Positions 6,965-52,402 of a stretch of 64,000 bases of DNA are shown in pieces (within the stretch, counting starts at the first letter, position 1; each line of letters starts with the position of its first letter). Below the pieces are notes generated by a model that saw only the letters and a list, made by a program, of their open reading frames with translations, had not been told where the DNA came from and did no database searches. A program made the position numbers and the translations under genes. Source of the DNA: Nitrospinota bacterium (GTDB lineage: Bacteria; Nitrospinota; Nitrospinia; Nitrospinales; VA-1); the NCBI GenBank assembly GCA_027619975.1, contig JAQCGX010000004.1, positions 25,508 through 89,507 of the forward strand, read 5' to 3'.

Positions 6965-7185
6965 GGGCACCTCTAAAAATTATTTTATTACAGGAAATTG
7001 AACATTGTACAAGGATTTCATATATCAGTGGCACGGGCGACCTACCTTAAAGTTTATGCGGAAGTGCGGAATTTAATTCCGCCTTTCTAGCCCGTGCGGA
7101 CAGGCTGGAAAGCCTGTCCCACTAAAACAAAGCCATCTCCTTAAATTGACGATTAGGAGCATTTAGTCAATTTTTAGAGATGCCT
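6965..7185 (-). mobile_element. MITE copy A (221 bp, inverted orientation)
   Basis: Ends are GGGCACCTCTAAAAATT ... AATTTTTAGAGATGCCT. It is flanked by TTAA (6961-6964) and TTAA (7186-7189). It is about 90 percent identical to the reverse complement of copy D. Confidence 0.85.
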
Positions 7186-12732: not shown

Positions 12733-12953
12733 GGGCATCTCTAAAAATAGACTAAATGTTCCTAATCGTTAATTTAAGGAGATGGCTTTGTTTTAGTGGG
12801 ACAGGCGACCTACCCTTAAAGGTTATACGGAAGTGCGGAATTTAATTCCGCCTTTCTAGCCTGTCCGCACGGGCTAGAAAGCCCGTGCCACCGATATAAG
12901 AAATCTTGTGCAATGTTCGATTTCCCGTAATAAACTAATTTTTAGAGGTGTCC
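12733..12953 (+). mobile_element. MITE copy B (221 bp)
   Basis: GGGCATCTCTAAAAATA ... AATTTTTAGAGGTGTCC. It is flanked by ATGA (12729-12732) and ATGA (12954-12957); the right duplicate supplies the start codon of the next gene. Confidence 0.85.
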
Positions 12954-19142: not shown

Positions 19143-19464
19143 TGTCACCCTGAGCCTGTCGAAGGGTGGTAATAGTCGTAACCTGGGTTTTAGCATTTCT
19201 TTTTTCCAAAGAATAAATGATCCCCGCCCCAAGGGGCGGGGTATTTAAAGGTAGTTTTTTTTATAACCTCCCCTAACCCCTCCTTGCAAAGGAGGGGAAT
19301 GTGAAAGGAAACCCCGTAGCAGAGCTACGAGGAATTCTTTTGATTAAAGGATGGTCACGAAAGAAAAAGGAAGCCCTGATAAAGGAAAATTTTGATTTGC
19401 TATCAAAATTATCGAAAAATAAAACTGATAGTTTAGATCCCCCTTCGACAAGCTCAGGGTGACA
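19143..19464. repeat. hairpin-rich repeat block bounded by inverted GTCACCCTGAGC...TCGAAGGG arms
   Basis: TGTCACCCTGAGCCTGTCGAAGGG (19143-19166) pairs with CCCTTCGACAAGCTCAGGGTGACA (19441-19464). Internal perfect hairpins are CCCCGCCCC-AA-GGGGCGGGG (19222-19241), CCCCTCC-TTGCAAA-GGAGGGG (19277-19297) and CGTAGC-AGA-GCTACG (19315-19329). Confidence 0.7.
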
Positions 19465-23422: not shown

Positions 23423-23971
23423 ATGATCGCAACAATTCTTTCCACATTAGTGATAGGTTTTTTCCTGCTGCTATTCGCCATGGTGGTGTTTCCAGCATTT
23501 TTCGGGTCCCCTTGGCACCCATTGATGCCGGGCACAATCAAGGAAATCCTTGAGTTTTCGGCCATCCAGCCGGGAGAAAAAATCTACGATCTGGGATCAG
23601 GAGACGGGAGGGTGTTGATACAGGCGGCCCGTGATTATGAGGCGGTTGGGATGGGGTTGGAAATCGACCCTTTGAAAGTCTGGGTTGCCAGAAAATTGGC
23701 CCGCATGGCGGGGGTTTCCGACCGTGTTCAATTTCTTCGTAAAAACTTCAACGATTTTGATTTCCGCGATGCGGACATCCTTTACGTTTATTTAACCCAT
23801 CAAGCGCTGGACCGCTTGTTCCCCAGAATCCTGCCTTATTTGAAACCCTCCACCCGCATCGTGTCTTACCGGTTTTGCCTGCGCAACCTGCAACCCTGCA
23901 AAATTAATAAAAAACAAAATCTTTTTATGTACCGGCTGGATAAGGGGATGAAAGTGGATGGCTATTCATAA
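23423..23971 (+). CDS. class I SAM-dependent methyltransferase with N-terminal TM helix
   Basis: 182 aa with motif I IYDLGSGDGRVLIQAA. The TAA stop lies inside the MITE-C target-site duplication. Confidence 0.7.
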   Translation: MIATILSTLVIGFFLLLFAMVVFPAFFGSPWHPLMPGTIKEILEFSAIQPGEKIYDLGSGDGRVLIQAARDYEAVGMGLEIDPLKVWVARKLARMAGVSDRVQFLRKNFNDFDFRDADILYVYLTHQALDRLFPRILPYLKPSTRIVSYRFCLRNLQPCKINKKQNLFMYRLDKGMKVDGYS

Positions 23972-24340
23972 GGGCACTTCTAAAAATTGACAACGGCACC
24001 GAATCGCCAGCTCAAAGAAGCGTCTTTTGTTTTAGTAGGACAGGCTTTCCAGCCTGTCCGCACGGGCTGGAAAGCCCGTGCCACTGATTTAAGAAACTTT
24101 TGCACACGATTCTATTTTCTGTGAAAACTAATTTTTAGCAGGTTGCTGAAAAACTATTTTTTCTACTCGCAACTGTCACACTGAGCTTGTGATATTCGAC
24201 AATTGCCTTCATGCCCCAGAGGGGTATGTCGAAGTGTGAAAACAGCCCTTATTATTAAGGTCATACTTCGACAAGCTCAGTGTGACAACAGTGGAAACCC
24301 TCGTGGATGGGACTTTTTCAGCAACCTGTTAGAGATACCC
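23972..24340 (+). mobile_element. MITE copy C (175-bp element carrying a 190-bp nested element)
   Basis: GGGCACTTCTAAAAATT ... TTAGAGATACCC, flanked by ATAA (23968-23971) and ATAA (24341-24344). Arithmetic: 369 - 190 - 4 = 175 bp, identical to copy E. Confidence 0.85.
24139..24328. mobile_element. second, unrelated MITE nested in the right TIR of copy C
   Basis: 15-bp TIR CAGGTTGCTGAAAAA ... TTTTTCAGCAACCTG, flanked by TTAG (24135-24138) and TTAG (24329-24332). Removing the element and one TTAG restores AATTTTTAGAGATACCC. There is an internal IR TGTCACACTGAGCTTGT / ACAAGCTCAGTGTGACA. Confidence 0.8.
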
Positions 24341-24438
24341 ATAAAAAAGAATTCAGAAGATGAGAGCGAGAAAAAATTTCAATATAAAATTTTACTCTTC
24401 CTTAAAAGTATTCTCGATTCTAACTTCTTCTTTCTTCT

Positions 24439-26463
24439 TTATTCTACTTTAACCAATCCTTCCCAGACATAGGCCAACTGATCCCCTGATTTCACAACCA
24501 ACCACGGTTTATCATTAAAAAGCACTTTGGTTCGCCTGACCAGGGCTAACCGATCGCCTTTATTGGCTTTTCCCATTTCCGGGAAAACCGCGCCGGGGCC
24601 TTGTTTCAAGGAAACTCCGTCGATCAACACGCGGACAAATCCCCCTCCGGCTGTCGGTTGCGGAGGACTTTGCACTATTGGGGCCTGAGGCGCCGCAATT
24701 TCAGCCGGGGGAGTGGGAACAGGAACAGTCACCGGGGCTGGAGTCACCACCGGAGCCGGGGGGGGCAAGTCGGCGACTTTCGGAGTCACCGGGGGTTCCA
24801 AGCTCGCCACTTGCGGGTTCTCAATAATTTCAGGTTGGGTGATTTTTGGAACTTCCGGAGTCACCGTCTGCGGTTGCGCCGGCTTTTCAAGAGCAGGTGG
24901 ATTCGTTTCAGGGGAAGTCACCACCGATGCAACGGAGGCTGTTTTGCCGAATTTCACAAAAACGGGATTCGAAACAAGATGATCTACCGGGCTGACGATG
25001 ACATTCAACCGATAATAAGCCGGCCCGCTCATATCCACCTGGGAATCAATCATTTTAAGTTCATAGGGGAGAACAACACTTTCCCGCTTGATCACCGTTC
25101 CATTACGGATGAGAAACACTTTGGCTCTTTTTTCATTCCCATCCGTAGAATGAATTTTCACAGAAATCTCGGGGAATGCGGTAGCGACCAGTTGCTCACC
25201 TAAAGTGGCTATTTTCCCGGAATCAACATCCTTGACAACAAATTCGTCCAGGGAGAGGCGATGCGGACCCGGTTGACGCACCGCGTACATTCGGCCAGTA
25301 CGCATCGCATCCAGCACCGCATCCTGTTGTTTTTCGCGAACCAGGAAAATGGTTCGCACCGCTCCCAAAATAGGTCCGGATTCTCCTGCACATTGAAAAT
25401 CATTCGTTCCATATCCCCAAACCGGCTGTTGTCTCTCCCCGCGAACGTACTGCATCAACACATGATCCCAGACATTTCCAGGCTCGGTTAACGAGACGGG
25501 CCCATCTGCGACTGCCTGGAACCCCGTATAATTTTGAGACAACACAAGATCTTCAGGGTGCGGCTGTGTATCCAGTTGGATCGTTCCCCATTGTCTCTTG
25601 CCATTGACGGCCTCGACATCATTCCAAAACACCATCGCCCCTTTAGAAATGGCATAATCAATCACCTCCTGATAAGGGGCGACGCCCCGATCCTCATGAT
25701 ATTGATCAAATAACGAACTTCTAAAGGGATGATTATTGAATATCAATAATACAAAAAAAACAGCCAGCGGAAGGGTCGCTTTCCGGTAATAGCCCTTAAA
25801 AAACATCGACAAAGCGATGGCTAAAAGAAAACCATACCCGATGACAGAGTTTTGCAATTTGCCCGCATACTTCGTCGAAAAATTACTGTCGAGAACGGGA
25901 AGCTGCTCGAAGTCTTCCCCATACTTCAACCCGATAATGGAAAGGCGCTTGTCCCAGTTGTGGGCCACCAGATTTTTCTTAAAAACATTCCCTGTCCAGT
26001 AATAAAAAGGAGAAACATCGGTACCTGGAATCAGCAGAGTTTCACGAAATTGCTTGTTTTTATTTCTAATATTGGACAAGTAAACATTGGAACTGGTGCT
26101 GAGGATGGAGGGCCCCGCATTGGTCTTTTTAATAATGCGTTTTAAAGGGAAAATTCCGTATTGGATGGAATTTCTCACCTGGTCGTTGAAAATAACTATG
26201 TCCAGCCCCGCTTGTTCTGCCATCGTGGCGGTTTCCTGGAGGTTCGCGCATCCCGAGCTGTATTTGGTTTTTATATCCGCGACTCCATCCAGCTGAAGAT
26301 ATTTGCCAAAAGCCGGATTGGAAGCAAACAAGACCAACCCTATGACGAACAGACCCAAAGCATGGGTAGGACGGAGAATTAGGCTCACTCGGGTCAAAAG
26401 GCGTAAAGCATTCAGCCCGCTTTTTGAACCCTTCGATATTTGGGGACCGGTTTCATTCATCAT
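24439..26463 (-). CDS. membrane-anchored hypothetical protein with Pro-rich linker and C-terminal SH3-like domain
   Basis: 674 aa. N-terminal TM helix, large unrecognised domain, P/V/T-rich segment (…PPAPVVTPAPVTVPVPTPPAE…), and a terminal ~65 aa resembling bacterial SH3 (…KGDRLALVRRTKVLFNDKPWLVVKSGDQLAYVWEGLV). Confidence 0.6.
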   Translation of the reverse strand: MMNETGPQISKGSKSGLNALRLLTRVSLILRPTHALGLFVIGLVLFASNPAFGKYLQLDGVADIKTKYSSGCANLQETATMAEQAGLDIVIFNDQVRNSIQYGIFPLKRIIKKTNAGPSILSTSSNVYLSNIRNKNKQFRETLLIPGTDVSPFYYWTGNVFKKNLVAHNWDKRLSIIGLKYGEDFEQLPVLDSNFSTKYAGKLQNSVIGYGFLLAIALSMFFKGYYRKATLPLAVFFVLLIFNNHPFRSSLFDQYHEDRGVAPYQEVIDYAISKGAMVFWNDVEAVNGKRQWGTIQLDTQPHPEDLVLSQNYTGFQAVADGPVSLTEPGNVWDHVLMQYVRGERQQPVWGYGTNDFQCAGESGPILGAVRTIFLVREKQQDAVLDAMRTGRMYAVRQPGPHRLSLDEFVVKDVDSGKIATLGEQLVATAFPEISVKIHSTDGNEKRAKVFLIRNGTVIKRESVVLPYELKMIDSQVDMSGPAYYRLNVIVSPVDHLVSNPVFVKFGKTASVASVVTSPETNPPALEKPAQPQTVTPEVPKITQPEIIENPQVASLEPPVTPKVADLPPPAPVVTPAPVTVPVPTPPAEIAAPQAPIVQSPPQPTAGGGFVRVLIDGVSLKQGPGAVFPEMGKANKGDRLALVRRTKVLFNDKPWLVVKSGDQLAYVWEGLVKVE

Positions 26464-28279: not shown

Positions 28280-28500
28280 GGGTATCTCTAAAAATTGACT
28301 AAATGCTCCTAATCGTCAACTTAAGGAGATGGCTTTGTTTTAGTGGAACAGGCTTTCCAGCCTGTTCGCACGGGCTAGAAAGGCGGAATTAAATTCCGCA
28401 CTTCCGCATAAACTTTAAGGTAGGTCGCCCGTGCCACCAATATAAGAAATCCTTGTACAGTGTTCGATTTCCTGTAATAAACTAATTTTTAGAGATGCCC
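28280..28500 (+). mobile_element. MITE copy D (221 bp)
   Basis: GGGTATCTCTAAAAATT ... AATTTTTAGAGATGCCC, flanked by TAAA (28276-28279) and TAAA (28501-28504). Confidence 0.88.
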
Positions 28501-52227: not shown

Positions 52228-52402
52228 GGGCATCTCTAAAAATTGACAACGACGCCGAATCGCCAATTCAAAGAAGCGTCTTTTGTTTTAGTAGGACAGG
52301 CGACCTACCCTTAAATTTAAGGATAGGTCGCCCGTGCCACTGATTTAAGAAACTTTTGCACACGATTCTATTTTCTGTGAAAACTAATTTTTAGAGATGC
52401 CC
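52228..52402 (+). mobile_element. MITE copy E (175 bp, perfect 17-bp TIR)
   Basis: GGGCATCTCTAAAAATT ... AATTTTTAGAGATGCCC, flanked by TTAA (52224-52227) and TTAA (52403-52406). Confidence 0.88.

Follow-up and report, generated by a model that had tools for sequence, protein, structure and literature searches.

A putative IS5-group MITE nested in the terminal inverted repeat of another MITE in a Nitrospinota genome

The window, by which we mean the whole 64-kb stretch of DNA analysed here, contains a methyltransferase gene (23423-23971) followed by a spacer between convergent genes; a 674-aa protein with homologues from Nitrospinaceae/Nitrospinota is encoded beside the locus. For the host, a further ~16 kb of flank was taken from the ENA metagenome scaffold MEHR18-1_SAMN03444948 scaffold_86, in which the window occupies 72,986-136,985. 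A search for the terminus AATTTTTAGAGATRCCC and its complement, combined with alignment, delimited five elements in the window (6965-7185, 12733-12953, 23972-24340, 28280-28500 and 52228-52402), lettered A to E in this order. They possess 17-bp terminal inverted repeats (TIRs; GGGCATCTCTAAAAATT) and 4-bp direct flanks, which in copy order read TTAA, ATGA, ATAA, TAAA and TTAA. The family comes in two lengths, 175 and 221 bp, which differ by a central segment of ~46 bp. The preliminary description of this DNA had named 175 bp as the canonical length; this holds for the short class (23972-24340 without its insert, and 52228-52402), while three of the five copies measure 221 bp (6965-7185, 12733-12953 and 28280-28500). 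The central hairpin varies by copy (GGCTTTCCAGCC versus GGCGACCTACCC types), with conserved arms and a mosaic centre.

The element in the spacer, copy C, measures 369 bp in its present state and 175 bp once a nested insert is subtracted. It consists of a left TIR (GGGCACTTCTAAAAATT, 23972-23988), a central GC-rich hairpin (24034-24085) and a right TIR that is split into AATTTTTAG (24130-24138) and AGATACCC (24333-24340). Its target site duplication (TSD) is ATAA, present at 23968-23971 and 24341-24344. The left ATAA contains the TAA stop of the methyltransferase gene (23969-23971), and relatives without the insert read TTCGTAA at this site, which indicates that the outer insertion struck the stop codon and left the protein length unchanged.

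Between the two parts of the right TIR lies a 190-bp element (24139-24328). Its left TIR CAGGTTGCTGAAAAA (24139-24153, + strand) and its right TIR (24314-24328, - strand; + strand reading TTTTTCAGCAACCTG) are exact reverse complements (15/15 bases), and it is flanked by TTAG at 24135-24138, within the right TIR of the outer MITE, and at 24329-24332, both assigned as TSD copies from the sequence and from family flank comparison. This agrees with the coordinates proposed previously for a 190-bp element with 15-bp TIRs between TTAG repeats (24135-24332). By chance, two perfectly inverted 15-mers no more than 300 bp apart would be expected ~0.02 times in 64 kb (64000 x 300 / 4^15), and such a pair with a 4-bp direct flank ~7e-5 times. 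Elsewhere within the 64-kb window the 15-mer CAGGTTGCTGAAAAA had no match with fewer than three mismatches. Besides the terminal pair, a repeat finder reported, further inside the element, a perfect 17-nt inverted pair, whose left arm (24174-24190, + strand; TGTCACACTGAGCTTGT) carries a GTCAYNSYGAG-type hairpin-module motif and whose right arm (24271-24287, - strand) belongs to a fuller module at 24266-24287 (- strand reading TGTCACACTGAGCTTGTCGAAG). As single-stranded DNA, the element folds at -45.8 kcal/mol (z = -8.6). It has no coding capacity: the sole overlapping ORF (24203-24472) extends beyond it and looks spurious, the interior bears no trace of transposase coding sequence, and tblastn with a cognate-type transposase gave no match in the window. 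With its TIRs, its TSD of fixed length and a mere 190 bp that encode no transposase, the inner element is thus built like a MITE.

Excision of 24139-24332 in silico, that is, of the element and one TTAG, restored the family terminus and yielded a 175-bp sequence that aligned with copy E (52228-52402) without a gap. Identity amounted to 149/175 positions, with nearly all differences in the central hairpin segment. The gap-free alignment means that the excision logic of the preliminary description is exact. Insertional origin of the outer family was evident from copy D: where the window reads AGCTAAAG[221 bp]TAAAGAATAAC, three sister species exhibit the exact empty site AGCTAAAGAATAAC. Taken together, TIRs, TSDs of fixed length, multiple copies and an empty site characterise the outer repeat as a mobile MITE. 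An autonomous partner of this family was not found, and a BLAST search of plasmids with the outer MITE matched nothing.

Gene order is the same at the orthologous loci of these relatives, whose proteins are 94%, 86% and 81% identical. The spacer between the convergent genes measures 41, 11 and 99 bp in them, respectively, versus 467 bp in the window, and both MITEs are missing from it in all three. Within the species, the nested structure was identical base for base in six independent assemblies (JGI 3300078537 and 3300076127; ENA ERZ23495042, ERZ1283805, ERZ23486384 and ERZ23486372), with contigs of 99.9-100% identity, which suggests that the nested insertion is fixed. An uninterrupted copy-C allele, whose junction would read ...AAACTAATTTTTAGAGATACCCATAAAAAAG..., had been proposed as a check in related strains; it did not occur in the six same-species assemblies, nor did its junction turn up in a metagenome scan (0 matches). 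The mobility of the inner copy in the window is therefore inferred and not observed. Other same-species contigs end in the outer MITE or at the junction of the inner element (L002, end 4764; L003; L004; L006, end 4001; L073, end 13073). The nested MITEs explain why several assemblies break at this point, and the two repeats fragment the assemblies of the host species.

Copies of the inner element were sought both in the host and beyond. A second copy of the 190-bp subfamily was found neither in the 64-kb window nor in the ~16 kb of extra scaffold, and a BLAST search of the window with the 190-bp sequence returned only the self-match and a short arm similarity to 19143-19464. A JGI scan for the subterminal sequence of the element produced two matches, both unrelated to the 190-bp subfamily, one of them being a contig that bears two outward-facing IS ends. 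A paired-terminus scan with the pattern GGTTGCTGAAAA-N(147-177)-TTTTCAGCAACC (24 specified bases) across 185,579 species-representative genomes (GTDB; 596 Gb) revealed 44 loci, compared with ~0.1 expected by chance. The search for other copies that the preliminary description had called for thus succeeded in other genomes, while a second member of the 190-bp subfamily was absent from the ~80 kb of host sequence and from the JGI scan. The titles of the records point to Nitrospinota, Acidobacteriota, Gemmatimonadota, Deltaproteobacteria/Thermodesulfobacteriota, Rokubacteria, Nitrospiraceae, Ignavibacteriales and others, and several MAGs contain 4-6 copies. The window copy lies within the family's size range of 172-204 bp, a range that the scan pattern itself bounded.

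Flank statistics were compiled for 45 copies, namely the 44 scan loci and the window copy. The flanking 4-mers were identical in 23 copies and differed by one base in 8 more, while control offsets of 4, 8 and 12 gave identical 4-mers in 0/45. Among the 23 perfect flanks, 20 conformed to YTAR (CTAG, 11; TTAG, 4; CTAA, 3; TTAA, 2). All non-palindromic perfect flanks (TTAG four times, CTAA three times, CTAT, TTTA and CTGG) were in direct orientation; they therefore represent target duplications and not extensions of the TIRs. The preliminary description had suggested that both families target short TA-rich 4-mers. For the inner family the target is more specific, namely YTAR, the IS5-group signature, and not just any TA-rich sequence; for the outer family the five TSDs are A/T-rich, a number too small for a sequence logo. 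In global alignments with the other 44 copies, the interior of the window copy reached only the identity level of a shuffled control. Membership of the inner element in the family consequently rests on its 15-bp termini, the TSD and short modules, and a close sibling subfamily among the 44 GTDB copies, which we had considered, was dropped for the same reason. With TIR- and TSD-bounded relatives of the inner element at 44 loci, and five copies, TSDs and the copy-D empty site for the outer one, the initial designation of the locus as a MITE within a MITE stands.

Several copies from Deltaproteobacteria/Thermodesulfobacteriota MAGs displayed a second terminus-like sequence ~25 nt from one TIR (L007, 2328/2353; L023, 2188/2213; L027, 6015/6040; L028, 347/372; L017, 5106/5130; L024, 5534/5563; L049, 495/521). 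It is located inside some elements (CAGGTTGCTCAAAA in L017 and L024) and just outside others, and amounts to a one-sided duplication of the TIR. Solitary TIRs in L036 and L039 had no adjacent transposase. The contig with two IS ends mentioned above (L054; WNEY01120723.1), a 2.3-kb metagenome contig, carries outward-facing termini of the family at both ends (837 and 2319) with flanks TTAA and CTAG, and its subterminal GTCCCATCC matches the right end of the window element; it is seemingly a short piece of chromosome trapped between two copies of the IS. In short BLAST searches against plasmids, the terminus, here carrying C as its fifth base, gave 4-12 matches per Paracoccus replicon and one or two per record in megaplasmids of Bradyrhizobium, Microvirga and Sinorhizobium NGR234, so the family is also present in cultured Alphaproteobacteria. 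The one match inspected, in Paracoccus versutus (pBEN; L051, 3005-3163), proved to be a 159-bp MITE with CTAG flanks.

BLAST with the terminus also led to autonomous elements. On plasmid CP094360.1 of Acidithiobacillus sp. YTS05 (L052, 3004-4263) we found a 1260-bp IS with a TTAG TSD, reading TTAG-CAGGTTGCTGAAAAA...CAGCAGTCTG-TTAG or, at greater length, TTAG-CAGGTTGCTGAAAAAGTCC...TTTTTCAGCAGTCTG-TTAG. Its left terminus (IRL) is identical to the 15-mer of the window element. The IS encodes a 351-aa transposase annotated as IS5 family, with DUF772 and DDE_Tnp_1 domains, that scored 308 bits against NCBIfam transpos_IS5_4 (NF033581; cut-off 140) and has at least 8000 homologues at E <= 1e-30. Two further ISs, from Bryobacteraceae (L059, 1297 bp; CTAA-CAGGCTGCTGAAAAA...CAGCAGCCTG-CTAA) and from Sphingomonas lycopersici (L060, 1312 bp; TTAA-CAGGCTGCGGAAAAA...CCGCAGCCTG-TTAA), share this architecture; their transposases are ~60% identical to that of L052, and their termini deviate from the 15-mer by 1-2 substitutions. 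The inner element has the termini of autonomous IS5-type ISs and a 4-bp YTAR/CWAR duplication, and these common termini and YTAR TSDs identify it, at the level of sequence, as a putative non-autonomous derivative of the IS5 group. An IS5-group transposase gene was absent from the ~80 kb of host sequence searched.

The preliminary description had related the internal inverted pair to the arms of a repeat block at 19143-19464. Indeed, both 19143-19159 and 19448-19464 agree with the internal arm at all but 1-2 positions, compared with a chance expectation of 0.05 such matches. Comparison across the family revealed that the arms represent a recurrent hairpin module (GTCA-stem-GAGC...CGAAG-stem), which takes the form GTCA-(5 nt)-GAGCGNAGCGA-(complement)-TC and in the window the variant TGTCACCCTGAGCYTGTCGAAGGG. 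Its core GCGAAGC is known as a hyperstable DNA mini-hairpin. Modules lie in the window at 19143-19168, 19441-19464, 24174-24190 and 24266-24287, and many more occur in L007-L050. In 14-16 of the 45 family copies, from several phyla, they are situated 9-21 nt inside both TIRs; with about a third of the family bearing them, they are not peculiar to the window copy. The 5-bp stems covary, with at least six variants across copies. Compared with flanking DNA, modules are ~40-fold enriched within IS5-type MITEs; they also occur outside MITEs, and the three autonomous ISs inspected lack them. The modules matched no Rfam family, and a literature search for the module and terminal sequences returned primer coincidences only. 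We also considered the internal pair as an insertion of its own, that is, as a third level of nesting, and set this aside: the pair has no flanking duplication, and the same arrangement of modules just inside the TIRs recurs in many copies.

The 322-bp block at 19143-19464 (also L001, 1722-2041) is bounded by inverted TGTCACCCTGAGCYTGTCGAAGGG, filled with small GC hairpins and directly precedes the start codon of oppB. The 94% relative lacks the block, and its nif3-oppB spacer measures 52 bp versus 396 bp in the window. The block looks like another insertion, although neither a clear TSD nor an exact empty site could be defined for it. As a tentative and rather doubtful idea, the GTCA-stem-GAGCGNAGCGA-stem modules might constitute an undescribed cross-phylum class of REP/REPIN-like sequences that has repeatedly been packaged between IS5-group termini. 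The modules resemble REP/REPIN sequences, which are mobilised by RAYT, in that both are small, conserved hairpins that begin with an invariant tetranucleotide (here GTCA), have covarying stems and form inverted doublets dispersed in genomes; the module sequence is not known to match a REP consensus. If the idea were true, a ubiquitous transposase would carry chimeric MITEs along, the nested element would be a three-layer mosaic of outer MITE, IS5-type termini and captured hairpin doublet, and the module-bounded block at 19143-19464 would represent this doublet in a form devoid of IS5 termini.

We propose that the locus arose by two sequential transpositions, a reading to which we assign a probability of about 0.9. 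A 175-bp member of the outer family, which is abundant in the host genome and has 17-bp TIRs and 4-bp duplications, would have entered ATAA at the methyltransferase stop in the spacer between the convergent genes. The 190-bp IS5-type non-autonomous element would then have entered TTAG in the right TIR of this copy, 8 bp from the tip, with duplication of TTAG; the target was presumably provided by the outer TIR sequence itself. A clade of DDE transposases that is widespread within the IS5 group (DUF772 and DDE_Tnp_1; transpos_IS5_4) probably recognises termini of the CAGGTTGCTGAAAAA type. These enzymes would make staggered cuts at YTAR targets and thereby generate 4-bp duplications, and the transposase for the inner element was presumably supplied in trans. 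The order that the preliminary description had deduced, outer insertion before inner, is likewise the parsimonious reading of our data. As 9 of its 17 right-TIR bases are now cut off from the terminus by the insertion, copy C has probably been immobilised.

A different origin of the inner element would be a full IS5-group IS that entered copy C and lost its transposase gene there by internal deletion, so that the 190-bp remnant never transposed as a MITE. Its termini and TSD would look alike, only one 190-bp copy exists in the host sequence searched, and its right end shares 19 nt (CAGGTTGCTGAAAAAGTCC) with the left end of the IS from Acidithiobacillus. On the other hand, such a deletion would hardly account for an interior without any trace of transposase coding sequence, or for a TIR-spacer-module...module-spacer-TIR architecture that recurs in ~14-16 other short copies from several phyla and is absent from the three autonomous ISs. 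The length of 190 bp, too, falls within the 172-204 bp of the family, even if the scan pattern bounded these sizes. We therefore regard an origin by deletion in place as unlikely. The inferred order would be wrong if the inner element had entered another outer copy and the 369-bp composite had then moved to the present site. This would be compatible with the intact ATAA duplication and with the split right TIR, whose last 8 bp are still terminal; yet the insert is missing from copies A, B, D and E and from one outer copy in the extra flank, a second 369-bp composite was not found, and displacement of 9/17 TIR bases from the terminus should impair recognition. Movement of a preformed composite hence seems very unlikely, and neither of these two scenarios has positive support.

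Finally, the very stable fold of the inner element, its location between convergent genes and the covarying module stems could also be expected of a structured RNA gene or a regulatory hairpin that is not mobile at all. No Rfam family reached its threshold at the locus or at 18 related loci, however: searches of the locus, the whole window and the related loci yielded only tRNAs and one 6S RNA elsewhere at gathering thresholds, and the best match, AaHKsRNA41, scored 17.8 bits against a threshold of 97. Moreover, there was no terminator-like site, the single promoter-like match was at the level of shuffled sequence, the interiors of the family are unrelated, and a function as RNA would leave the TSDs and IS-type termini unexplained. 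We thus consider this explanation extremely improbable and retain the two successive transpositions.

For the host genome, the nested pair provides a relative chronology of two insertions, and it reveals in the TIR of the outer family a YTAR site to which IS5-type elements are drawn. Beyond this genome, short non-autonomous elements that end in CAGGYTGCKGAAAAA occur in Nitrospinota, Acidobacteriota, Gemmatimonadota, Deltaproteobacteria, Alphaproteobacteria and other phyla, which makes this terminus a handy annotation key for purging spurious small ORFs from MAGs. The occurrence of these termini across phyla suggests that the transposase clade readily mobilises unrelated cargo. The current understanding of transposition is unchanged by these findings; the nested pair is a clean textbook case of ordinary biology and no new kind of element.

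Among the closest known systems are IS5 of E. coli and the IS5 group of the IS5 family. The termini of E. coli IS5, GGAAGGTGCGAATAAG, differ from the CAGGTTGCTGAAAAA of the window element. The consensus of its TSD, a duplicated 4-bp C(A/T)A(G/A) target (PMC11677980), is nearly identical to the YTAR of the inner family. The autonomous partners have a length typical of the IS5 group (~1.26-1.31 kb), whereas the window element has no transposase. IS-derived bacterial MITEs such as MITEAba12, the Correia elements and the QMITEs of Coxiella resemble the inner element in that they are short, non-coding and intergenic, possess TIRs and TSDs, fold into hairpins and have termini in common with autonomous ISs. 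The many near-identical copies per genome that define MITE families were seen for the outer family but, in the ~80 kb of host sequence, not for the inner one, which is recognisable across phyla by its termini only. Nested MITEs are commonplace in eukaryotes, for instance in plants. For bacteria, a keyword search of the literature on nested MITEs retrieved no direct precedent besides the IS1111 copies inserted in QMITE2 of Coxiella burnetii (PMC5896051). As in that case and in the nested MITEs of plants, the locus described here comprises a MITE that is interrupted while its ends remain discernible, and the insertion serves as a relative time marker. Unlike IS1111 in QMITE2, the guest is here itself a MITE, and it occupies a YTAR site in the TIR of its host (TTAG/CTAA within AATTTTTAGAGA).
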